64,000 nt of DNA from Guillardia theta CCMP2712 (Eukaryota > Protista > Cryptophyta). Under the pieces are notes generated by a model. It searched no databases. It was not told the DNA's origin and saw nothing but the letters and a program-made list of their open reading frames with translations. The stretch lies in NCBI RefSeq assembly GCF_000315625.1, contig NW_005434560.1, positions 102,049 through 166,048 on the forward strand, in the 5' to 3' direction. Position numbers and translations under genes: made by a program. Shown here piece after piece: positions 1-59,355 of the stretch; position 1 is the first letter of the stretch; each line of letters begins with the position of its first letter.

Positions 1-3000
1 TACCCAGCCCATCGGGCGCTTCGTCCCGGGAGATACTACGGATTACATTCAGACGGGGGTTGCGGGTGGCTGGGACCAGTGTCCAGATGCAAGAGAGGAT
101 TGGGAAGCACACCCCCCCGTCATCTGGCAGTATGCATCACTGGATCCCGGAGATGTCAAAGGGGGCGACGGCGACGGCGGTTTGGCCTGCGAGTGGACAA
201 ACGTTTGGAAGGTACGAGCTCCCGGAGGGGACGGTGCCGGAGTGGGGTCCTGGCTGCGGGCAGCTACCACTCAGGACTAGTCGCAACGACACAGACTGGC
301 CTGCCCTGCACGGCGCGGCCGTGCGCTGCCTGAGGTCGTGGTCCGAGTCCCGCGGGGAGGAGAGGGACGGGGTTTGCGCCGTGCAGGGCTCGGCGCCGCT
401 GCAGTGCTACCAGAACCATCATTGCAGGGACTCCGGGCAGGTCTGTTCCGCATGGGGCAGGTGCGTGGATGGCTATGTCCTGATGCGGAACAAGGTGGGC
501 TACCCTGTGGAGATGCACTCCCACTCGGAGAAGTGCGGTGAAGAATCGCTAGGGGTACTCCCCCTGGCAGGTCGTCCCGGAGTTCCTCCCGCGCCACGGC
601 ATGTGCGGGTTCCGAGAGTGGTTCGAGTATGAGACGATCCGGGCGAGGCCGCCGGGGGCGGCGAGCCCCGGCACGCTGGCGGCGGTGAACCCGGATGTGC
701 TCTGGTACAGCACAATCCCCTATGTGACGGACGCGGTGGTGAAGCAGGGTCTGTTCGAGAGGGGTATCCTGAAGGTACACCCTCACAGGGNNNNNNNNNN
801 NNNNNNNNNNNNNNNNNNNNNNNNNNNNNNNNNNNNNNNNNNNNNNNNNNNNNNNNNNNNNNNNNNNNNNNNNNNNNNNNNNNNNNNNNNNNNNNNNNNN
901 NNNNNNNNNNNNNNNNNNNNNNNNNNNNNNNNNNNNNNNNNNNNNNNNNNNNNNNNNNNNNNNNNNNNNNNNNNNNNTTTCTCCGGTGTGGCCGGGGAGG
1001 ACAGCTTCGCGGGCGTCCAGAACTCGCTCAGCCTCTGCTCGAATCTTCAGCTCTGTTCTCTTCAGGAGTTCTATGTACAGGGCTACCATACGCTCGGGCG
1101 CAAGATCAACCGGGTGCAGAAGGATGGGAGCTGCATCGATTCCGGGAATTGCCTGGCGACCCCCTACCAACTGCAGGACGGCCTATTCTGCGGTGCTGCG
1201 GGATATCTGAAGGCCCTGGACCCTTCGGACGTGGCGAGGAGGTACGACCCGATATGCAGGGTGGACCCCCTGGTCACTCCCCTGGTGAGGATGTTCTGCA
1301 CCGCCGATAGGGCGTCCATATCGAGTGCCTGTGACCTCGACCCGAGCTATGCCACCGTGTCCAACGTCCAGGAGCTCTGCAGACTCTGGGACGAGGACTA
1401 CAACTACCAGTCGCTGCCCAACATCGACCGCGCGCTCAACCGGGCGCTTCTCCGCTTCTTCAAGCGCGGTTTCACGACCTGGGACGAGTACCAGAGGCGG
1501 GCGACCTGCGCGGCGACGGTGTTCAACCTGATGGGGGTGTACGCGGGGCAGCAGACGCAGGGCACGGGCGGCACGCAGTGGTACTCCGTCGAGCTCGAGC
1601 CGGGGGTACCTACCTATTTTCCTCCCTATGCTTCGCTGTACGTCTTCCGCGACGCTTCCCAGATGGAGATCCCGGCGGCGTGGTGGGTGCAGTGCGTGCT
1701 GCTGGACTCTTCCGTGAACGTGGAGCTCCTTGAAAGTGCATCCACCGACCAGGTGCCGTGCCGCGGGTGGGAGAACGCCAAGACCGCGGGGTACCAGCCG
1801 CAGACGGTGCGTGACTTCCTCCTTAGCTCCCCGAGGGTGTACCTGGAATCCGGGATGAACTCGCCTACCAATGAGACGCAGATCGCGCTGAGCATCTACG
1901 ACAACCTCTTCGAGCAGGTGTCCCTGGCAAGGCACACCGTGCAGGGCGCCATGGGGGGAGGGGAGCATCGGCTTTCCTATGTGTATTATCGCACCTTGAA
2001 GGACCTGTATCTCACCGACGAGGACTACAATGAATTCGCGAATGCGGTCGACAGTGGTGGCAACAGCAACAACGATAAGGTGTTCAAGACCAATGCCGTA
2101 CCCCGGGATGACGGGACATACCCCTTCTACGACGATTCCGACATCCCCGGCATATTCCAGCAGGTGGTGAACTACATGATGAGCGGGAGTGTCAGGGATG
2201 GCTACTTCCCCCCCGGGTCGGGTGTGAACCGCCTGTCCAAGGCGATGGGATCGTTCACGAAGACGTCGCTCTCGGACGGCTTCCTCGATCTCGGCCCTGC
2301 GTACTTCGACCCATCCCTGGGCGTGCTGCAGTACACCCTGCCGACCCTGGCGCCTTCGTTCTTCGAGGCGGAGTTGGACAGGATCCTTGCGGGAGTGCTG
2401 AAGCAGGAGGATGACCTGCAAGATTGGAAAGATATCGGGCTCGAGTATGAGTACGATGCCTTCAAGGACTATGCCACCCTTGCCGACCTTTCCACAGGGA
2501 CTATGCGCATGACCAAGTGCCTCAATGTCAACTTCAATACCTCCGAGCCCGGGGTGAATCAGAACTTCATCAGGCCATTCGTGAGGCTGCTGGATCAGAA
2601 CGCCGGGGGTGAGGACATATATGTCTGTGACAGCGATGTGGGCTACGACAGGCGCACCGGGCAGAGCTGTGGGCTGATGCATGACTCGTTAGATGACAAT
2701 TGCTCCACTCGATTCGTCTATCTCCGCGAGTACAACAACGGGGAGGGCATCGTGGTGCAGACGCATTGCAAGCAACCCCTCTTTGTGCGGGATCTGGTGG
2801 AAGACGACAAGCGTAAGATCGCGGACCTCTCCCGCCTCGACCTTGACACGGCAAACCCCGCGGGGGCCATCTGCCTCCGCACGGATTCCACGTGCTTGCA
2901 GGGCGGTGGGTTGGAGGGGAGTTCGGTAGGAGTGGTGTCCGTCGTTCCCACCTTGGGTGTGGAGGTGCAGACATTCTACCGCGAGATGCAGAGCGGTGAC

Positions 3001-6000
3001 CCCAACTCCGACAAGTTCTACGGGCCGCTGTACCAGAAGGCTTCCACCCGCTGGTACCCAGCGTGGGTGGACTGCTACGGTGTCCCGGGGGTGACAGAGC
3101 AACCTCCAGGCCTGGACGGGCTGGGATAGGGCGCGCGTGGAGCAGGCAAGGGAGATTCTGCTTGCTAGAGAGAATGCGGAGGGCTCGAGCCCCAACCTAC
3201 AGGTCCTGGACCTAGAGGCGATCTGGAATAGCAGCAGCACCCGCCCGGTGAGCTTCTCCGTCCGCTGCAACGTCTCCTCGTGCACCACCAGCACCGGGGT
3301 TTCGTTCGATTGCGGCAGCGACGGCCAGTGCAACGTCCGGATGGATAACATGGCCGTCCATGCCATGTCCCTGCGCCTGACCGAGCCCTCCGTGTACTTC
3401 TGCGCGTCCAGCGAGGCGCAGGCGAGGGAGCGGTGCCCGGCGCGGAGGACGAACGACAGCGTCCTGGTGGAGATCAGGAACAACCTCTGGTACTGCAAGG
3501 CCGACTGCGTGAGGAAGACGCTCCTGAAGTACGTCGGGAAGCACTCCATCAAGTACCGCGGACTCAGGGAGGACGTGCTGGGCTTCACCCCCTCGGACAG
3601 GAGCGCAATCGGGCTGAGCGATACGAGCAACGCCCGGGACGGCTATTCGCAGAAGGACAGCTTCCGGCTGGTGCACCACCTGATGAGGAAGCAGATCTTT
3701 GGCTCGGGTAACGCGCTCCCTGGCTCCATCTACAACAGCGTCTGGATGAAGCCCAGCGCGCTGAGTGCCTCCTTCATGGACCGCCACTCGCTCTACCCCT
3801 TCCAGGCCCTCACCCTGTACGATTACGTGAATTACGTCGAGCAGGCCGACACGATGCGGAAGCAGCCGCTGGACACCTGCATCAACCAGGCGGTCGACGT
3901 CACCGAGTGCTCGAAGGACCAGATCACGGGGCAGCGCGTCCATCGCAGCAGCCTGGAGCAGTGCGCCTCGGAGCTGAAGCGGAGGTCTTCCTTGGTTGCC
4001 AATCCGGGCTACGCTGTGCTTGTGAAGCTGAGGGGAGAGGAGCTCACCTCTTCGCATCTGCTTCATTGGGCGGCGGCATCGCGCCCGGAGAGGGACCGTT
4101 TCGTCGACTGGGTGACGAGCGCCGGCCGTTGCTCGGAGACGCGCCAGTCCGAGGCGGTGTGCTACCTGACCGGGGACGGGAATGTGTTCACCATCAACCC
4201 CTGGCTGGGCGGCGGGTTCAATATCCACGAGGCCTGCGACACCGTGCCGCTGCCGGAGCAGCTCACCCGGGTGATCAGCGCGGACTGCTTCCCCCAGGGG
4301 TCCGGGACTTGCAGGAATTACACCGCCCTGGTCTATACCCCCTGTGTCTCCAAGAACAATCAGCCCCCGAGCAGGACGGACATCTTCACCTCCGCCTCCA
4401 ACAATCTGTGTGAGAAGGCGCCGCGCCCCAACTCAACCTGCCTGCAGAGGCAGGGTCTGTACGGGGGCGGGGAGGGGGAGGGCATGACCGATCTGTACAC
4501 TCGGCCTTTGTATTCCATGCCCTACTCGGGGATCTTCGGCATGGAGCCCAACCCTTCCTACCATTCCAGGACTCCGTCCAATGGCATTCTAAGGCAGTCC
4601 TTCATGGATCTGGGGGGTGGTTTCTTCGTCGCGGACCTTCAGACCCTGGAGGATGGGATGACCGACAACCTGCTGCCGGCCTGCATGCCGCTCTGGTACC
4701 CCACCAAGGCAGACGGCTCCCCCGACCTTGCGGGCAGGGACCCGTGCTCGAACAACAGCATGGACTGGCTCTCCTCTTACTCCGTCGATTCCCGCGTCGA
4801 CTACGACCTTAACCGGGTGGATCTCGGGAACACCGTGGCGGAGGGCCAGCTGCCGCCGTGGGACTGCCCCGTCCGGGAGATGCACTTCTGGGGCGGGGGC
4901 GACGCCTCCTTCCGGCCCAGGGCGCCATACGGGCCGAGGGCAGGGGTGATGTTCTTCGAGGCGAGCAACATGGGGGGGAGTGCCGGAAACGGGATGTCGA
5001 ATCCGGTGCAGCCCTATGGGGTGGAGATGCCCGGCCTGCAAAGGCCGTACTTTGCATCGGAGATCTGCAGCTGCTCCTCTGCGGGGGACTGTTCGTTCCA
5101 GGTCGTTTCCAAGGAGAGCTGTTCTATCCTTTCAACGGTTGATTTCCTCTCGGGGGAGAAGTGGTACACCCAGCAGGCGCACGCCGGGGCGGCGGGCTGC
5201 CGGACCTCTACTGACTGGCCGCACTCGGGGGGCATGCTAAGGGACGGGACTTACCTGACCGCCTCTGCTCAGGACTGTCCCGTCCACGACCGCCTGCGCG
5301 AGTTCCAGCTGCGCTACATCCCTGTGCAAGTCACAGCGGATGCCGGGAGGACCACCCTGGACGAAGGCGGGGAATGCCACATGGGGAGGATGGTCAGCGT
5401 GCCTTCCACCGTCCCGCTCGGGGGGCAGTGCCACCGCTACAACTACTCCCACCTCGAGTGCTCGGTGACGGCTATCTCCGGGGGAGAGGGTGCAGTGACG
5501 GAGGTTAGCTACCACCACCTGGATGTTCCTAGGTCGACCATGTACCTGGAACAGCTGTCACGGAACTTCCGCAGGCGCTGCGGGCAGTGCCAGGCTCCCC
5601 CCAAGACGGAGAAGTTCGTCAACAGGGCTGATCGGAGCATCCATGGCGTCAGCTACCTCGCCGACGGCCGCTTCACGAGCTTCGGCGTGCCCGTCAGGCT
5701 GTCCCTCGCCCGCATGCTGGCCCGGGACATACGGCAGCAGGTATGCGGGAATCAGGCGCAGTGTTCCCTGCTGGACTCCGTGGCGAACACGAACGAATGG
5801 ACGATCGACAACTTCATGGGGAAGTACCTCCGTGACATCGCCGGGCTCTTCACCTCGGGAGGGGCTGCGGGGAGCATCACCCCGCCTGCTCCCAGCCTGG
5901 TGGACGACACGATGTTCTGGGGGCGCAACTGGACCTTCTGCACGGAGACGGAGCGCAACCTGACGACCGGGCAGTACCGACGGGAGTGCTTCGGGAGCAT

Positions 6001-10407: not shown

Positions 10408-11019
10408 TTACTCGGGGGTTAAATGATGCAGCAGGAGGTACTCCGGGGAGATGGGGTGCTTGTAGGGGAGGAAGGGCATGCCTAGCTTGATCCGGATTTG
10501 CGAGATGATGTTGTACATCTCCGTGTAGGCTTGGAAGATGTTGGGCTCGATGCGTTCCAGGTTTTCGAGGACGTCCCCATCGCTGTACATGACAAGGCTT
10601 GCAATCTGTTGTTTGCTTAAGACTTTCTGGTGGCCCTTGTTCGTGCGGATGACATCCTGCATGACCTCCCATGTTCTCTGATCCACGTTGTACAGGGCGG
10701 TGAACAGGGGTGCGAGCTTCGCCTTCCTCTCCTGCATATCACGGATGAAGTTTCGGAACATGTCGCGCTGCTCGACGAACATCTCCACCTCGTGCTCCAC
10801 GAGTATGATGGTCTCCCTCGGGTACCTGGTGTGGATATGCTCCGTGCTGTTGTCCTTGATCAGGAGGAGGATGTCGCTGTATTTGAAATCGCCCTTGCTG
10901 ATCACCTTGATCATGTACATGCGCGAATCCCACATGTAGTCGAGCGCGATATGCAGGTCTAGCTCCGATGTCATTTCTTCAGAATCCGGTCCATCCAATT
11001 CAGTCCCTCCCCGTAGCAT
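10408..11019 (-). CDS. Hypothetical protein (start uncertain, 11019 or 10974)
   Basis: Helical globular-looking ORF with genome-typical codon usage. Confidence 0.7.
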   Translation of the reverse strand: MLRGGTELDGPDSEEMTSELDLHIALDYMWDSRMYMIKVISKGDFKYSDILLLIKDNSTEHIHTRYPRETIILVEHEVEMFVEQRDMFRNFIRDMQERKAKLAPLFTALYNVDQRTWEVMQDVIRTNKGHQKVLSKQQIASLVMYSDGDVLENLERIEPNIFQAYTEMYNIISQIRIKLGMPFLPYKHPISPEYLLLHHLTPE

Positions 11020-17470: not shown

Positions 17471-18192
17471 GGTGCGCGGTCTTCTCTTTCCGTTTTGATC
17501 CCGAGCCTCTCTACAGCATCATCAATGAATGTGTTGCGTATGTAATAGTATATGTCACTGAATGAGTCCCACATATGCATGGTTTGCCAGGAAAGACGTT
17601 CCGTTAAAAACACTTCAAATAGAAGTCGATGTGTGCGTAAAAACGGGTCAATTATATTTCTGATATCGGGAATGATATCATCTGCGTATATTGATAACAT
17701 GTTTTTCTGCTGGGATGATGAGCAGCTTGAAATTATTTTTGCAGTGAGGACCATCTTTCGCATGATATGCACCGTGCGTTCTATGATATTCATTTGCTCG
17801 TTTACTATCTGTGCTTTTGGTGCTGTCGCCATCGAAGGTAAATCACATAAGATCCGTACAAATTGGATCCAAACATCGATAATGTCCAGTGGAATTTCAA
17901 GCATAAAAAAACCCGATATTTCCAAATGAGTGAGGTTAGATCGCCGATTCATGACATAATCCAACACCTTATCATAGTCCAAATTATAATCAAGATTCCA
18001 AATTCGACCCGGTATATCATCTAAATTCAAACCCATTACATCATGGATGAATCTCCGTAGGTGTAGTGCGATGGGTTGTAGTGTCTGCTCGTTCATATTT
18101 GTCCTATTAATACCCTGCATTTGGCGTTCCATATCCCAAATCCTCTCACACAAACTATCAATACTTTTTTGCAATCTCTCTCGCCTCTGCAT
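17467..18192 (-). CDS. Hypothetical helical protein, low GC
   Basis: ATG at 18192 follows a TATATAAA (~18217-18225, minus). The segment is AT-rich. Confidence 0.7.
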   Translation of the reverse strand: MQRRERLQKSIDSLCERIWDMERQMQGINRTNMNEQTLQPIALHLRRFIHDVMGLNLDDIPGRIWNLDYNLDYDKVLDYVMNRRSNLTHLEISGFFMLEIPLDIIDVWIQFVRILCDLPSMATAPKAQIVNEQMNIIERTVHIMRKMVLTAKIISSCSSSQQKNMLSIYADDIIPDIRNIIDPFLRTHRLLFEVFLTERLSWQTMHMWDSFSDIYYYIRNTFIDDAVERLGIKTEREDRAP

Positions 18193-24883: not shown

Positions 24884-26113
24884 CTAAACGCTGAACACCG
24901 CCGACTGGGCGATCAGGATGATGGCCAGTGCTGCCTTGGAAGTCGTACTCAGGAGGTTGTAGACGTACTCCCGCAGGTAACCGTCGATCTTTGTCTCCTC
25001 CTTCTGGATGAAGTGGAAGTAGATCTGCGCCGCGGCGAAGGTGAAGAAAAGAACCAACTCGATAATATAGATAAGAATTGGATAGACTGTGTAGCTGCTG
25101 AGGTTTTTGTCATTGAGACAGTCGAAGATCCTCATGTAGTCTCCAAAGAGGTTGTTCCCGATGTAGAACCATATCATCACAAATAAGTACATCCCAAATA
25201 AGAAAGCCAATCCTTTCATGTAGTTCGTTATCTTCTTGAGGTCCTTTGGCTCCACACCCGGCATGCCCCATGCAGCATTCATCTCGACCCCGATCGTCCT
25301 GTAAGCCGGACTGACCACCGACCCCTTCTGCCACGGCATGTTGAAACGCACGGGGACGATGACCGCGCTCGTGCGGTCGGAGCCCCACGCTCCCCTGAAA
25401 GCCATCTCACTCCTCTCCATGTTACTATATTCTCCAGTATCGACCTTCTCATCCGGAACGCTTTGTGCCTCCCTGAAGAGACACTCCTTCGATGCCACGT
25501 AGTCCGCCGCCTCGACGACGTACCCCAGGAAGCACATCACCGACTGCGCCAGGGACACAAAGATCAGCACCCACACGTCCGTCGTCCCCGTGTAGAGGCA
25601 GATCACGACGATCATCGAGGAGGACGAGAGCGCGTACTCGATCCAGCGGTCGTAGCGGGGCAGGCCCTTCCGAAGCGGGTCAATGAATGCACCCATCATT
25701 ATCGCCCTGTCGAGGTGTGCCAAGATTGTGACGACGACGAAGAAGAGGATAAAGAAGCTGACGGGGAAGAAGGATGTCTCCACCACCCTGGGTTGGTACA
25801 TCCAGGGGTTGGAAGAGCCCCACCGCACCTCGTAAGGAGGCGGAGTATTGACACCACAGCGGTCTAAATCAGGATGGCTCCCCGCCTGCGGCACCGTGAT
25901 CAGGCTGGCATTCCACAGGAGCGGCACCGTGCGCGTCGTCGGGGGTGTGCGGATTCGATTCATCGCCAGAAGGACGATGAAAGCGATTAGAAGGAGTCCA
26001 TGAATGAACGCATTGAACAGATTGCGGTTTCTGGAGTACCGCAACCTATCCTCTTCTTTTACCCCTGCGCCCTCGAAAGCAAAGATCATCTTCAAATCAT
26101 TCCCCAACCCCAT
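24884..26113 (-). CDS. Heliorhodopsin with a long insertion between TM4 and TM5
   Basis: TM1 His (NAFIH), TM2 His (ILAH), RWIEYALSSSSMIVVI (TM3 counterion motif), FLGYVVE (TM4), and EYVYNLLSTTSKAALA (TM7 SxxxK retinal lysine). Confidence 0.9.
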   Translation of the reverse strand: MGLGNDLKMIFAFEGAGVKEEDRLRYSRNRNLFNAFIHGLLLIAFIVLLAMNRIRTPPTTRTVPLLWNASLITVPQAGSHPDLDRCGVNTPPPYEVRWGSSNPWMYQPRVVETSFFPVSFFILFFVVVTILAHLDRAIMMGAFIDPLRKGLPRYDRWIEYALSSSSMIVVICLYTGTTDVWVLIFVSLAQSVMCFLGYVVEAADYVASKECLFREAQSVPDEKVDTGEYSNMERSEMAFRGAWGSDRTSAVIVPVRFNMPWQKGSVVSPAYRTIGVEMNAAWGMPGVEPKDLKKITNYMKGLAFLFGMYLFVMIWFYIGNNLFGDYMRIFDCLNDKNLSSYTVYPILIYIIELVLFFTFAAAQIYFHFIQKEETKIDGYLREYVYNLLSTTSKAALAIILIAQSAVFSV

Positions 26114-40410: not shown

Positions 40411-40775
40411 GGTCTCCCAGGAAAGGCCCCCCCCCTTGGCCAGAATCTGGAAACCGTTAAACCGTTAAACCGTTAAACCGTTAAAACCTTCAACCACAGT
40501 CCGGCGATTCTTGTCCTTTGATCATTTTAAATAAGGTTCGCCGGACATATATATATATACATATATTACATACATAGATACATACATATACATAGTATGT
40601 ATATACATACATACATATACATACATATACATACATACTATATACTATATACATACTATACGTATACTGTCCGGCGAACCTTCTTTAAAGGTTTTAAAGA
40701 CCGTTAACCTTTAACGGTTTAACGGTTTAACGGTTTTCAGATTCTGGCCAGAGGGGGGGCCTTTCCCTGGGGACC
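40411..40775. repeat. Nested inverted repeat with 8-bp iterons and a 120-bp AT-rich core, candidate replication origin
   Basis: Outer arms at 40411-40486 and 40710-40775. AAACCGTT x4 (40451-40482) faces AACGGTTT x3 (40713-40736). A perfect 15-bp inner IR AAGGTTCGCCGGACA (40533-40547 / 40668-40682) flanks a (TA/TACA)n spacer at 40548-40667. Confidence 0.9.
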
Positions 40776-51425: not shown

Positions 51426-51567
51426 CCTGCCGTACGGGCGTCGCGGTCTCTTTTATACGGGGGAACCGTGCGGATAACCGTGTATTTAAGTTCGTGTGGC
51501 GGAGGGACAGATACGCTGGTCTGGCTGGATTCCTTGAAATTCATTGCTTGCCAGATACACGGGCGGG

Positions 51568-52383
51568 ATGTCGCTGTCGAAGTTTCAAGAACAGTCAAAC
51601 TATGCTGTTGCATTCCACTTATGCAGGAACATGGCTGATGTGAGGAAGGACATGAAGAAAATTCAAGGGTTTAATTATCAGGCTCCCTATGAATTCATGA
51701 ATTATCATCTCAAATATGCAATTCCCTCGGATAAGTACAAGTGTGCCATGCAGTATGGCAATTACCTGATGTTGAAATCCGCTGAGTTGCTGATGGGTTT
51801 GAAGGATAAGTTCCAGAAACCCCTCGATGGTAACAGAAAAGTAGGGATAGATGAAAAACACAACTTCATTTTTTCGGATCCTTGTACGGTCATACAAGCC
51901 ATGAAGTTGCATAATGGACACTACTACGAAAACTTTTCTCTCCCCAAGGATCTCATGGAGGACCTAGAGAATCCAAGCCTGGAGCCCCCTTTCCTTGTGG
52001 TGCATAATTATGAGGTGCACTGGTTCCCTGCCTCCAAGATCACCCCGGGCAAGAATGGGATGGGGTGGTACGTCGACTCCGTCGTTCGCACCGTCGACGA
52101 TCAAATGAGGCCGGTTCAGTTCTTCGCGGCATACTCCAGTGAGGAGAGGAATGAGTACAGCCGCGTCCTGTACGACAACTGCGAATTCGGGCCCTCGAAC
52201 TGCAATATCGACATTCCGTTCAAGAAGTTCGAGTACAGCCAGGAGAGCCTCGACGCCATGAAGCAGTTTCCACACCCTCCGATGTTGAACGCGAACGAGT
52301 TGCCAGATTCGCCGTTGGAGGCAAGCTCGGAGGAGGAGTGGAAGCCCCCTGCGAAGGTGTCCAGGACGAGCGCGAGGAAGTAG
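51568..52383 (+). CDS. Hypothetical protein
   Basis: ATG ORF with TGTATTTAAG at 51481 and a basic C-terminus. Confidence 0.75.
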   Translation: MSLSKFQEQSNYAVAFHLCRNMADVRKDMKKIQGFNYQAPYEFMNYHLKYAIPSDKYKCAMQYGNYLMLKSAELLMGLKDKFQKPLDGNRKVGIDEKHNFIFSDPCTVIQAMKLHNGHYYENFSLPKDLMEDLENPSLEPPFLVVHNYEVHWFPASKITPGKNGMGWYVDSVVRTVDDQMRPVQFFAAYSSEERNEYSRVLYDNCEFGPSNCNIDIPFKKFEYSQESLDAMKQFPHPPMLNANELPDSPLEASSEEEWKPPAKVSRTSARK

Positions 52384-52451
52384 ATGCCAGGAGGGTAGGC
52401 GTCCCGTGTGTGTGTTTGGTACTAAATCACGTTTAATTTACTTCATATGTA

Positions 52452-53039
52452 CTACTCCTCCGAGACGCTCTCCATGAGCCATGCGACCTCTGTCTTGGTT
52501 CTTTCGGCGTAGGAGAGGAAATGGTCATCCTTGTCGATGTTGTACTTGCGGATGTAGTGGAAGTACTTGTCGGAATCTCGGTCATAGTAGCCGTCGGCCA
52601 CGAAAACGACCCCGTGATTGATGAACAGGGGTGCGTGCTCGTAGTGGGTCTGGCGAACATAATAGGGGTACCAATGCACCGCCTTGACCGCCATGCTGTG
52701 GAAACACTCGATCACGTCTTCAGTGGGGACGGTGATCCTGTCCACGGCCTTTGCCTTCTCGAGCGCGCCTTCGAGCTGCTTGATGGCAGAGGCGATAGTG
52801 TCCTTCTTCTCTTTGGAGGTCGTGGTGGTGAGTTTTTCCTTCAACTCGGCGAGCTTCGGGGGTGCGAAGGTCTCGAACCTCTCGTTGCAGATGGTGACGG
52901 TGCGGATAGTGACAGTATCCAATTCTTCATCCCTGACTTTGAAGGATAGCGTCACCTTGGCCGGGTGGGCTTCAAACCTCGGGCGTTTGCGTGCGCGCTC
53001 TTCAGCGTTGCTTTGCAACCTGTAGATCTCGGTGAACAT
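52452..53039 (-). CDS. Hypothetical protein with RKRPR NLS-like motif
   Basis: ATG at 53039 lies ~30 nt after TATTTAAA (~53071-53078, minus). Confidence 0.7.
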   Translation of the reverse strand: MFTEIYRLQSNAEERARKRPRFEAHPAKVTLSFKVRDEELDTVTIRTVTICNERFETFAPPKLAELKEKLTTTTSKEKKDTIASAIKQLEGALEKAKAVDRITVPTEDVIECFHSMAVKAVHWYPYYVRQTHYEHAPLFINHGVVFVADGYYDRDSDKYFHYIRKYNIDKDDHFLSYAERTKTEVAWLMESVSEE

Positions 53040-53214
53040 GCCACGCGTGCCCTGTGCTTTTTGGTGTAGCTTTAAATAAAACATCGAGGGGGGAATAAAA
53101 AAACACAAAAAAAAACTTCCATGACGCCGAAATCCATCTCTCCGCGCTTTCGAACGTATTAAACCCGGCGATGGCGCCGCCCTCCTCGGACTGGTTACTG
53201 ACGCTTTCCCGCAG

Positions 53215-54783
53215 ATTGGGACGACCAAGGGCACCGGCGGGGATGTGCTGATCCTGGAGGAGGCGGCATACTGCGACGAAGGTTTCTTCTACGAAACCGT
53301 CGCACCCATCCTTTCCATCGGCAACACGTCGCTGCTGTGTATATCTACCTTGACATCGGAGATCAATTTCTACACCAGGCTGATAAAGATGCGGGACCCG
53401 GAGACGGGCAGGCCACTCTTCGCCGTCAGGTGCATCGAGCTCGCCTGCCAGGCATGCAAGGAAGACGGCAAGGCGCACGAGTGTGTGCACCTCCTGCATC
53501 TCGTCCCGCAGTGGCAGAGTGGCGAGAGGCACAGGAGGCTGAAGGTGATGATGCAGGATCGCCCGGATCTGATACAATCCGAGCTGGCGGGGCTGGCGTT
53601 CGACTCCCTGCAGCAGGCCTTCCGCCCCAAAGACGTGGAGATCATGTTCGAGCAGGTCGCCCCTCCCCTCTCCAACGGACAGACCGTCTTCGTCGTCGTG
53701 GACCCGGCGGCGGGAGGGCCGCAGAGCGACTACGCCGTCGTGAGCATCGTGAGGAGCAAGGGGCTTGTGACGGTAACTCTCTGTGTGTTTGCACCCTTCT
53801 TCCCCTCTAGCTGTATTGGTAGACCTCCCGCAGCTCCCGCTCGAAGTCGACGCTGAGGCGGAGCTCGTCGCGGAGGAAGCGGGGCACGACGCGGGAGCCG
53901 AGCTCGCGGAAGAGCACGGGGGCCTTGTGGGGGCAGAGGCCCTTGAGCGTGACCCCGGTGGGTTCGTGGAGGAAGGAGCGGCAGACCGCCTCTTTTAGCC
54001 CCATGTCCACGTTGAGCAAGAGGAAGAAGACGCACCTCGCGCTGTGCGGCGACCGCCTCGCGATCTCGTAGAGCCGGACCGCCTCCGTGTCCCGCAGCTC
54101 CGCGGCGATCCTCTCCACCGCCCCCTTGCAGAACTCGAGCGTGGTCCTCATGTCGTCTGTGTAGAGGATGTGGAAGAGGACGTCCCTGTTTCTGAGCTCT
54201 GACATCTACCCTTCGCAGATCGTCGGGATGGACGTGCTGTCGGGATGCAAAGGTACTTCTTTTTTTTTTAATCTTTCCTGCATTGACTCCCTTGGAAGAG
54301 CCCGACAAGCAGTTCGACCTGCTCGGGGAGCACATGGAGAGGCTGCGGGGGATGAACACCGCGCTCTACGCCTCGGAGTTCGTCGTCATGGTGGAGCGGA
54401 ACCTGGGCTTCGAGGCGGAGTACCACCAGCGGCACTTCAACGGCATGCCCCATGTCCGCTTCCGCGTCGACCACAAGGCCCAGAGGTACGGCGTGCTGAC
54501 GACACTCGAGATAAAGCACGCCATGTGCACCATGCTCAACACCATGCTGCGGGAGCGGAGGGTGCACCTCTGGGGCGAGTTCGTCAGCCGCGACCCCAGG
54601 GGCATGAAGCGCCGGCTCCGCGAGCAGCTCGAGATCTACTCCTACCAGTTCAAGGGCGCCGCCAGCGTCTTCAACAAGGACCAGCTCGCGCTCAGCGGGA
54701 AGGTCGGCGGGATGAAGGACGACGTCTGCATCGCCCTGCAGCTCGCCTGCTACTACAGCTCCAACCCGGAGTTCTACGTGTAG
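53215..54783 (+). CDS. Herpes-type terminase large (ATPase/nuclease) subunit, 3' exons: 53215-53772, 54219-54252, 54299-54783 (358 aa spliced); Walker-A exon absent from window
   Basis: KGTGGDVLILEEAAY (Walker B), CIST (motif III), CxxC..C.H..P.W, and RNase-H nuclease motifs VVVDPAAGG, VERN and SGKVGGMKDD. Removing two GT-AG introns restores one frame (1077 nt). Confidence 0.88.
53773..54218 (+). other. Spliceosomal intron (446 nt, phase 0) in the terminase, containing a nested antisense gene
   Basis: Donor ACG|GTAACT, branch CTCTGAC (54197-54203), acceptor CCTTCGCAG. Splicing joins GLVT to IVGMD. Confidence 0.8.
53807..54205 (-). CDS. Hypothetical protein (132 aa) nested antisense inside the terminase intron
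   Basis: ATG-to-TAG ORF filling 399 of 446 intron bases, with genome-typical GC3 codon usage and globular composition. Confidence 0.7.
   Translation of the reverse strand: MSELRNRDVLFHILYTDDMRTTLEFCKGAVERIAAELRDTEAVRLYEIARRSPHSARCVFFLLLNVDMGLKEAVCRSFLHEPTGVTLKGLCPHKAPVLFRELGSRVVPRFLRDELRLSVDFERELREVYQYS
54253..54298 (+). other. Spliceosomal intron (46 nt, phase 1) in the terminase
   Basis: Donor AAG|GTACTT, T-rich body, branch CATTGAC, acceptor AAG. Splicing joins GCK-E-PDKQF. Confidence 0.8.
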
Positions 54784-54845
54784 TCACTGCTGTTCACGCA
54801 TATTTATGTGACTCTCTCTGGTGACAGTCCAACGTTCAAGTTACT

Positions 54846-55097
54846 ATGGTTTCAGAAGAAATGAGTAAGAGAGAGAGCCACATCCTGTCCTTCAAGACCT
54901 GGTCTATAGGCATTCTGGATGAAAGTGACATTGATGCCGTCAAAGTTGCCATATCCTTGGATGATGTGCAGCATATCTTCCATAAGATCAACTACAGGGT
55001 ACCTTATGATTGTGATCACAAAGAACTTTGTTGTATGTGGCTCAAGGTGGTCATTGATGACAATCTTGAAGCTGCCTTTAGAAATGTTTCTATTTAG
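54846..55097 (+). CDS. Small hypothetical protein, low GC
   Basis: ATG ORF with an upstream TATTTAT (~54801). Confidence 0.55.
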   Translation: MVSEEMSKRESHILSFKTWSIGILDESDIDAVKVAISLDDVQHIFHKINYRVPYDCDHKELCCMWLKVVIDDNLEAAFRNVSI

Positions 55098-55147
55098 GCT
55101 AAACCCGTTCTCTCTGTATTGGAATTAAATTACGATTCCTTATTAAT

Positions 55148-56527
55148 TCAAAGCCGCATCTGCACCAACATCATCCGCATGGCAGCCTGCATCCTGTTGC
55201 ACCGCACCACCCTCTCCGCGTCGTCCTCCGGAATCCCGCGGAGTGCGCCCAGGTACCGGGTGACGAGGACGTGCTTGACGAGGAGGTACTTCCCGGTCCG
55301 GATGCTGTCGGAGTTGAGGTTGGCGGCCTGTGACATGTACGCCTTCAACCCGTTGAAGTAACGCACGTTGACCTGCGCGGGGGACTGCGCGGCGGCGAGG
55401 AAGGTCATTCCCTGGATCTCGCCCAGGTGGAACTTACCGTGGAGGTAGACCGCGATGTAGGGGTTGGTGGCAATGTCCCGCAGGATTATGTATGCAAAGG
55501 CCTTCTCTTGCATGAATGTGAAAGACGATGTCTTGATCTTTGGTTGAAGTTCGAAGGGATCCTCCGAAAAGTCTTTCCTATTTCCTGCGTCCTCTTGCAT
55601 CAGCAGCTTCATCATACCCGATCCCCACTCGTTGGTGCACTGCATCCTCACCCCGAGCTTGTTGTAGTAGCCGGTGGGGTAGTTGATAAAGACGCGGGTG
55701 GTTTTTGTCTGGTCTGCGGTGTGCTCGTCGTTCCACATGTAGAGCACAAAGCGCTCGATGACCCGCCAGAGGCTCAGGTACAGGTGCGTCGGGAACACGT
55801 TGCCCACTAGGGACGTCTTGAAGCGCAGCACCGCCGAGATGACGTTGTTCGTTTTTTCGAAGACCTTGTAGCTCTCGCTCATCAGCTTGTTGTCTCTCGT
55901 TTGCATGTCTTTCCAGTCCTTCTTGTCCGCGTCCACCTCGATGAGCAGCGTGATGTGCATGCCGGCGAACTCCACGAAGAGGGAGACGTCGGGGCGGGTG
56001 CTGTTGCCGTCCCTCCCGCAGATGGTGCGGTTGAAGATCATTCTTACCTGGGACCCCGGGAAGCGGGTGGCGATCTCCCTACCGCACATGCCGGCGAAGA
56101 CCTCCACGACGGGGTGGTCCTGCAGGATCGCCGTCGGCACCCCGGGCATGGCGACGCAGCACATGCAGACCGCTGTACCCTTTCTGGTGTCGATGCGGAG
56201 GTCGGTGAGGCTGACGATGGAGCGCCGGCCGCAGATGGCGCAGACGAAGTGCCGCTCGTCGCACTGGGCGACCACCCAGCTCTGCAGCGACTCCATCAGC
56301 GCCACGCCGTCGATCGCGGAGGCGTCGATCTCGGCCTGGAGGGCTGCGATCTCCGCGGCATGCAACGCATGTTGGTCCTTCGGAAACATGGCTTTCGCAT
56401 CTTTGTTATTCTTGAAGTTCGGTGTCCAGAAGGGGGTCTGCGTGAAGACAGAGGCGAGGTTGGCGCGCATGGCAAGCTCCTTGTTGGGATATCTTTCTGG
56501 AACGGGGTCACAGGTGATCGTCTGCAT
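55148..56527 (-). CDS. Zn-ribbon plus PD-(D/E)xK-family nuclease
   Basis: CAICG...CMCC zinc motif and TRPDVSLF...LLIEVD nuclease motif. ATG at 56527 follows TGTATTTCAA (56564-56573, minus). Confidence 0.65.
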
Positions 56528-57867: not shown

Positions 57868-59355
57868 ATGGGACGCACCAAACAAGATCAACGGAGGGAG
57901 ACCGGTCAAAGGGCTCCAGTCGCGAGGCTCTCAACTCAGAGAGCCAGAGAAGATGCACCCTTTACGGCGGGTGTAAGACAGCCAGGCAGCACTGCTACCA
58001 AGCAGCGCGGTGTTGTCGCATCGGGCGTGAATGTGCCCAATTATCTGCAGTTGATCTGTGCCCTTTCTGCTTTTCAAAGTGAGGAAGATCTAAAACAAAT
58101 GCAGTACTTTGTCGACCTTTCTAAGGAAGATGAAGCTTGGTACAACAAGCTTACCTCAGAAAACAGGCAAATATTTGATGATCTCTGGGTTAGGCTCGAT
58201 TCCGTGTCTGTACCTCAGACAGAACAGCAAACGACTGAAGGTGCAGCTTCTATCTTGCAGAGCATGCGCAATGACGAGAATCAAGACACGCAACAGGAGT
58301 TCCAGGAATCCGATCCAACCAATGTCGTGAGCGGCACCCTGCAACCGGACGTCACGGTGCTCCTCGAATCCCAACCCGAGAGCAATGAAATGGATTCGCA
58401 GCAAGAGCCTGTGCCGGCCCCTCCTGCCGTCGATGGAAATGGTGATCCAATCGATGAAACGGGCACTGGATCGCAGGTTCCTGGGACGTCGCCGACCGAT
58501 GAGCCGACATCCGTTTCCTCTACCATCGATGAGAACAATCAAGAAATCGATGGAACGGGTACTGAATCGCAGGTTCCTGGGACGTCGCCGACCGTTGAGC
58601 CGACATCCGTTCCTGTCGTCGATATGAACGAGAACAGAGATGAAGGCTCTTCCAACGCTACCGGTTCAAGCAAACTGCTAGAGAAGGCATTTCAGCGAGA
58701 GAGCAGCTCGGATGAATCCGATGATCCCGATGCACCTGTGATCACCAACTCTCGCAAGAACGTCGGTGGCAAGCAACTCCCACAGATGCAACCACAGATG
58801 TCGAACCCACAGCCGCAACCAGCAACGTTTGTGAACCCAGCTTTGGAAGAGTATCACTTCGTTATTCCCGAGCAACCCGACAATGGTCCGGAACAAACAG
58901 GCGTTCCATCTACTGCCACTGATTCGTCTGTTTCTAAAAAACCAATCAGAACCAAGCAGACTGCCAAGAAGAGCACTGGCGGCAAAGCACCACGCAAAGG
59001 TCGCGCCAAAAAGGATTCTAGGAGGTCCACCGTACACGACGGCGGAGTCAAAAAGCCCCACCGCTTCCGCCCCGGCACCGTGGCCCTCCGCGAGATCCGC
59101 AGGTACCAGAAGAGTACGGAGCTCCTTATCAGGAAGATCCCTTTCCAGCGGCTCGTCAGGGAGGTAACGCAAGACCTGGGATTCCGGGGCATCCGATATA
59201 AAGCAGATGCCATCATGGCGTTGCAGGAGGCTTCGGAGGCCTACCTGGTTGGACTCTTTGAAGACACCAACCTCTGTGCCATCCATGCCAAGCGTGTCAC
59301 GATCATGCCCAAGGACATCCAGCTGGCCCGGAGGATCCGTGGGGAGCGTACTTAG
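57868..59355 (+). CDS. H3: Histone H3 fusion (495 aa): N-terminal H3-tail copy, long acidic linker, complete H3 (58945-59352)
   Basis: The C-terminal [17 protein letters not shown]...[28 protein letters not shown]...[20 protein letters not shown] is unmistakably H3. ATG at 57868 follows TGTATTTAAA (57822). Confidence 0.95.
58450..58614. repeat. Imperfect ~69-bp repeat x2 (96-bp period) in the H3 linker
   Basis: [22 protein letters not shown] versus [22 protein letters not shown]. Confidence 0.9.

Follow-up and report, generated by a model that had tools for sequence, protein, structure and literature searches.

An orphan splice acceptor at the Walker B exon of a mirusvirus-like terminase gene and the probable trans-splicing of its two halves

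A 64-kb stretch of DNA (hereafter the window) contains a terminase gene that begins at a splice acceptor, just before its Walker B region, which raises the question of where the Walker A half of the gene resides and how the two parts are brought together. An earlier note on this DNA had suggested that the back part is either trans-spliced to a separately transcribed front half or joined to it across a very long cis intron. The evidence set out below leads us to infer, with a probability of about 0.82, that the back part is trans-spliced to a separately made front half in the virus represented by the window.

The back part of the gene and its acceptor

The motifs reported in the earlier note are all present at the positions given there. 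CGTATTAAA occupies 53155-53163 on the forward strand and is followed by the branch point TACTGAC at 53196-53202 (branch A 53201), the pyrimidine tract GCTTTCCCG at 53203-53211 and CAG at 53212-53214, after which the exon opens with IGTTKGTGGDVLILEE. Conserved terminase sequence starts exactly after this CAG, in phase 0. The terminase frame has a stop codon at 53122-53124, is open from 53125 and includes near-cognate codons; its first in-frame ATG, at 53389, lies past Walker B and the ATG at 53171 is out of frame, confirming that no start of this kind precedes Walker B. When both strands were scanned, a branch point followed by a pyrimidine tract (at least 70%) and YAG was found at just three sites in the window. 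A second strong combination, ending in CAG, is located at 11108-11085 on the reverse strand, where it overlaps the region in which the divergent gene 11118 starts, about 65 nt before the ATG at 11019.

Comparison with relatives, for which the 80 best loci out of 266 confirmed in metagenomes were used, revealed that the acceptor is conserved. After nine loci without an intact IGTTKG motif had been left out, YAG was observed directly before the intact IGTTKG start in 70 of 71 loci (68 CAG, 2 TAG), the exception being L063, and CTRAC-like motifs occur at similar distances in most relatives. The peptide encoded upstream of the acceptor is, unlike the YAG and the phase, not conserved. Since the YAG is maintained across these loci, the acceptor is not a chance match. 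A misassembly breakpoint, a concern of the earlier note, is unlikely because contigs from sequencing runs X1 and X2 both cross 51500-55300 as one unbroken piece; X1 may itself be the source, and X2, whose contig has one single-base gap here, represents another sample from another study. Besides the window's virus, at depths near 61 in X1 and 7 in X2, both runs contain other related terminase loci whose depths differ (42.7, 65 and 143.7 in X1), one of which has an acceptor-like sequence at the equivalent codon, and this reads as several related viruses within one sample.

Downstream of the acceptor the gene contains two cis introns, and its coding length from 53215 is 358 codons in all. The first exon (53215-53772, 186 codons) covers the Walker B region, the linker and the start of the nuclease domain. 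It is followed in the nuclease region by a GT-AG intron of 446 nt (53773-54218, with a CTGAC branch point at 54199-54203). Of 66 testable loci, 65 have its GT donor at the equivalent codon, and the remaining one, again L063, precisely lacks the intron. An exon of 34 nt (54219-54252) restores the sequence of the intronless homologs P0009, P0018 and P0023, and is separated by a putative 46-nt GT...AAG intron (54253-54298) from the last, nuclease exon (54299-54783), which also matches intronless homologs and ends in TAG. The proposed boundaries of the 46-nt intron derive from the only one of six candidate acceptors tried that preserves the frame, and an intron is present at the equivalent place in L055 and L063.

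The 446-nt intron encodes on its reverse strand a protein of 132 residues (53807-54205) that belongs to a conserved family, 37 of the 44 distinct intron ORFs, the window's included, matching one profile. Its predicted structure is mostly helical (pLDDT 91.5), an earlier single-sequence model having been poor, and no structure in the PDB emerged as a clear match in fold searches (Foldseek E 0.96 and Z 5.0 at best). This gene is likely to be MING-1: MING-1 introns are likewise described in PMC12768974 as carrying a homolog-less gene at a constant position within the terminase nuclease region, and the conserved small helical fold is a further likeness to that description.

On the basis of close homologs and the ESM Atlas, the window gene can be assigned as a terminase large subunit. 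A search for longer proteins returned 55 homologs, many of which start their conserved part at an equivalent Q|IGTTKG-like point. Three (P0040, P0041 and P0043) are unsplit at the junction and continuous from a Walker A region. P0040, which is 65-69% identical to the window over the shared part, matches phrog_7579, a terminase large subunit (PHROGs, E 8e-10), and Terminase_6N clusters at 0.95-0.97 in the ESM Atlas. The window exon alone has no Pfam match and no terminase-labelled PHROG match, and a PDB sequence search with the family profile returned nothing significant. The three unsplit homologs break off about 125 residues past the junction, after QSELS, so that their lineage would seem to be split, or interrupted by an intron, at another place.

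The source is likely to be a large virus, a mirusvirus of single-celled eukaryotes, as judged indirectly by heliorhodopsin and histone genes, spliceosomal introns and the terminase family. Those homologs that carry names derive from cryptophyte data sets. The heliorhodopsin gene is located at 24884-26113 (reverse strand), and a 495-residue protein with a C-terminal histone fold is encoded at 57868-59355 (forward strand). Elsewhere in the window, a non-coding region at 40411-40775 comprises nested inverted repeats, whose arms measure 62, 27 and 22 nt, with AAACCGTT units and C/G runs surrounding an AT-rich TACA core, and resembles an origin of replication or a packaging signal.

The Walker A half in the window and among relatives

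A search for the front part of the protein gave 727 matches, and among the 120 listed most end either in SYPSK followed by V or in SYPSK followed by IG and unrelated residues. We read these two endings as probable GT donors in two phases. Measured against the unsplit P0040, P0041 and P0043, the window exon, from 53215 on, adjoins the SYPSK end of the V-type front halves without gap or overlap. Front halves end at the GT without a conserved tail. Some long matches were considered as joined terminases and rejected; they consist of front halves plus unrelated downstream sequence, two of them being database gene models.

The statement of the earlier note that the 64 kb lack a Walker A half is borne out. 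A tblastn search of the window with P0040 found nothing, and a profile of 120 N-terminal halves run over its six frames reached a maximum of 5.2 bits. When pieces of real N-terminal halves were scored in the same way, 5.2 bits was exceeded by 215 of 248 pieces of twenty residues and by 149 of 256 pieces of twelve; consequently, only very small exons, or the 187-N gap at 791-977 inside ORF 601-3129, which is beyond the reach of the profile search, could hide the front half. The searched flanks without it amount to 53 kb upstream and 9 kb downstream of the acceptor. Scans of viral contigs returned distant relatives only, or nothing, and comparison of X1, X2, X10 and X6 with the relative L054 did not reveal the front half of this virus; X1 and X2 gave no pick-up at a likeness cut-off of 80%, which relatives, being only about 74% alike in DNA, would not reach. 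Run X10 has the appearance of unspliced DNA from a relative, and the RNA run X21 contributes seven short reads and no joints. No full-length joined protein of the window's clade appeared in the protein searches, which mostly covered genes called on DNA.

Separation of the halves is common among the relatives. A front half is present in 10 of the 80 loci, nine of which have it co-oriented 1.2-3.5 kb upstream with genes between. The tenth, L083, has a front-half exon at 17496-17741, about 10.9 kb downstream of the back-half acceptor on the same strand, although this permuted order is known from one contig whose end lies inside the front half. Fifteen loci extend at least 9 kb upstream, and 10 of these, representing about five distinct viruses, lack a front half. 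In a tree of 54 distinct rows, from which interrupted or truncated first exons (L081-L086 among them) were omitted, the nine loci with close halves fall in one group of 14 rows with moderate support (90/83), nested in a well-supported clade that also holds loci with far halves; the window falls outside the group. The tree is rooted at the midpoint and does not establish the order of events.

Two contigs, L071 and L079, are likely to be chimeric: their terminase match breaks off mid-exon (at L071:228 and L079:265) into unrelated sequence without AG. Conserved antisense genes flank the split in L040, L054, L057, L059, L061, L080 and others, one of 93-114 residues after the donor and a cysteine-rich one of 210-236 residues before the acceptor; neither is found in the window. 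The divergent neighbour of the window's acceptor (52452-53084, reverse strand, 210 residues, 130 nt from the acceptor) has no match to the acceptor-side genes of relatives.

A candidate promoter, a repeated tag and an unusual contig

The earlier note had called CGTATTAAA promoter-like. This proposal gains support from motif counts in the window and in relatives, a promoter function remaining putative. The element contains GTATTAA and lies 59 nt before the exon. Of the 43 called genes, 14 (4 antisense) have the pattern GTAT[AT][AT]A at a distance of 23-58 nt ahead of their ATG; the pattern occurs 28 times in all, 18 times in front of an ATG on the same strand, and the match at 53156 points toward the terminase. 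Similar TATA-like boxes are located 53-82 nt before the acceptor in relatives. Among 32 dereplicated relatives, drawn from 68 with enough flanking sequence, GTAT[AT]T precedes the acceptor in 13, compared with a mean of 2.4 and a maximum of 8 in 300 shuffles. Within -90 to -45 there are 13 sense and 5 antisense matches in the 32 loci, and the next 45 nt upstream have none (0/32). No match precedes the cis acceptor (0/25), the comparison region there being coding DNA. These patterns were picked after inspection of the sequences, and of those counted in relatives the window's own box fits only the looser [GC]TAT[AT][AT] (17 versus 2 of 32). The box is partly symmetric, as reflected in the antisense matches in 5 of 32, and could be used by the divergent neighbour gene instead.

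Transcription usually starts about 25-30 nt behind a TATA box. With this spacing, the start region and a short 5' intron piece, or outron, are predicted at 53164-53195, and the ATG at 53171 would sit upstream of the transcript start. The window's outron has no stable fold.

The earlier note had also proposed a test for complementarity between the donor intron and the region before the acceptor, which could bring the two RNAs together. This idea receives no general support, as the cognate pair of donor-side and acceptor-side intron ends stands out in only one of nine paired relative loci (L075, z -4.8 versus mononucleotide shuffles), and not in its near-twin L077. A repeated tag, AAAGTC, is observed in a sister clade: in 8 of 9 loci it occurs in 2-6 copies within 100 nt past the donor, and in 8 of 9 it occurs once, on the same strand, 45-65 nt before the acceptor, far above the expected 0.03-0.07 per 100 nt. 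The carriers (L040, L049, L057, L059, L061, L075, L077 and L080) are kin of one another; neither L054 nor the window's acceptor has AAAGTC. Where it precedes the acceptor, the tag lies, by eye, about 20 nt behind the TATA-like box, and therefore may be an initiator.

The contig L063 is 99.8% identical to L055/L058 minus precisely a 408-nt intron, with the next intron retained, and looks RNA-derived. At its orphan acceptor it has 37 foreign letters (L063:1-37) with an in-frame stop and no SYPSK. This suggests splicing of the acceptor to a donor that is not its neighbour, although the evidence is a single, possibly chimeric contig; the 37 letters are a candidate host leader, a stray donor or a chimera. 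They have no matches in viral contigs, the relative loci, the window or the texts of papers searched, and are unlike the cryptomonad (PMC5619915) and eustigmatophyte (PMC8570151) leaders as printed.

Trans-splicing, its rivals and how the halves may meet

The trans-splicing interpretation is supported by the conserved acceptor, by a window without the Walker A half and by a published precedent in mirusviruses (Medvedeva et al., Nat Microbiol, PMC12768974). The back part would have a promoter of its own in the TATA-like box at 53156 and a transcript start near 53180-53187, so that the transcript would begin with an outron of about 30 nt carrying the branch point. The front half, with Walker A, would be encoded elsewhere in the same viral genome and made as an RNA of its own, and the host spliceosome would join that RNA to the acceptor at 53214. 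The product would be one mRNA encoding a terminase of roughly 570-590 residues.

According to PMC12768974, the majority of mirusvirus terminases, two orders apart, are trans-spliced, in some cases with the halves on opposite strands, and junction reads from metatranscriptomes back this; the term 'trans-spliced' occurs 656 times in its genome table. As described there for Okeanovirales and Styxvirales, these genes share with the window the split between a Walker A part and a Walker B plus nuclease part, canonical splice sites, halves that are far apart and extra cis introns, and the branch-point consensus of Styxvirales, CTGAC, recurs in the window. The published cases differ in having junction reads, whereas the window's case is known from the back half alone. 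In orthoherpesvirus UL15 an intron also separates ATPase and nuclease exons and houses other genes (PMC13595911, PMC3079670), but it is about 3.5 kb long with the halves in order, whereas in the window the gap exceeds 53 kb or the order is different. The alloherpesvirus terminase is likewise described as a multi-exon gene (PMC12567609). Spliced-leader trans-splicing, for example in cryptomonads (PMC5619915), is comparable in that the RNA with the acceptor begins with an outron and has no donor ahead of it. The donor in such systems is a short leader, whereas the window requires a coding exon of 210-230 codons, and a leader at the orphan acceptor is known from one contig, L063. The earlier note had further raised the idea that a shared split position may be ancestral to herpesviruses and mirusviruses. 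This is only partly supported: some mirusvirus sites do match those of alloherpesviruses, but the site varies among mirusvirus clades (PMC12768974), and among the relatives examined here two split phases plus unsplit forms are found.

The best surviving alternative, which we nevertheless consider improbable, is a cis intron that would start at a co-oriented front half located before the window and exceed 53 kb, a larger form of the gene-containing intron known from UL15 at 3.5 kb (PMC3079670, PMC13595911). The 9 of 80 relatives with a co-oriented front half 1.2-3.5 kb upstream may possess an ordinary intron of this type, and, for co-oriented halves, short junction reads alone would probably not separate long cis from trans. 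However, the cis pre-mRNA would have to read through at least 20 co-oriented called genes, 10 of which have terminal polyA-like signals (AATAAA/ATTAAA), together with 17 antisense genes, and a TATA-like box stands just before the acceptor. The permuted order in L083 and the opposite-strand halves in PMC12768974 also argue against it.

It is somewhat less probable still that the back part is expressed alone, from CTG 53191, ATT 53215, ATG 53389 or a host leader, to give a nuclease-only protein with the ATPase half as a separate polypeptide. The open frame from 53125 with its near-cognate codons would allow this, herpesviruses offer a precedent in UL15.5 (PMC3079670), L063 bears a non-terminase leader at the acceptor, and no full-length joined protein of the clade appeared in the protein searches, mostly of DNA-called genes. 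Against this stand the position of the split, between Walker A and Walker B and thus inside one fold through which unsplit relatives read; the retention of YAG and phase in 70 of 71 loci without retention of the upstream peptide; the ending of front halves at a GT with no conserved tail; and the joined transcripts reported in PMC12768974. A near-cognate start as the main route was ranked low. Slightly less credible again is that the acceptor is a relic, in an integrated or rearranged viral fragment that has lost its front half or in a misassembly. In its favour, the best-matching runs are labelled with organisms and not as metagenomes and contain several related terminase loci, and the front half is undetected in X1/X2. 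Against it, X1 and X2, which are different samples, each cross the site in a single contig, neither the reading frames nor the splice signals are broken, the window is gene-dense, and an orphan acceptor is the norm among relatives.

If the halves are indeed trans-spliced, a more specific account of their meeting can be put forward, although as a whole we regard it as speculative and rather unlikely. The back half would always be transcribed as a unit of its own, its outron measuring only about 30-50 nt, even where the halves are 1-3.5 kb apart; its partner would be chosen not by RNA base-pairing but by a factor acting on a tag repeated at both broken intron ends, this tag being AAAGTC in the sister clade; and the free acceptor would also take foreign leaders. 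The intron-encoded MING-1-like protein is a candidate for the tag-binding factor. If true, this would explain for the first time how gene-to-gene trans-splicing works in a DNA virus.

The arrangement as such is already published for mirusviruses, and the window locus is one more example. The word 'promoter' is absent from the main text and peer-review file of PMC12768974, and, as far as word searches of its text go, that paper does not cover the TATA-like box, the AAAGTC tag or the foreign leader. Mechanistic work awaits cultures, according to PMC12768974. The virus is present at high depth in runs labelled by organism name and not as metagenome, which may mean that the host can be cultured. 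The candidate promoter, the short outron and the tag of the sister clade make the meeting of the two halves experimentally approachable, by 5'-end mapping and mutation.
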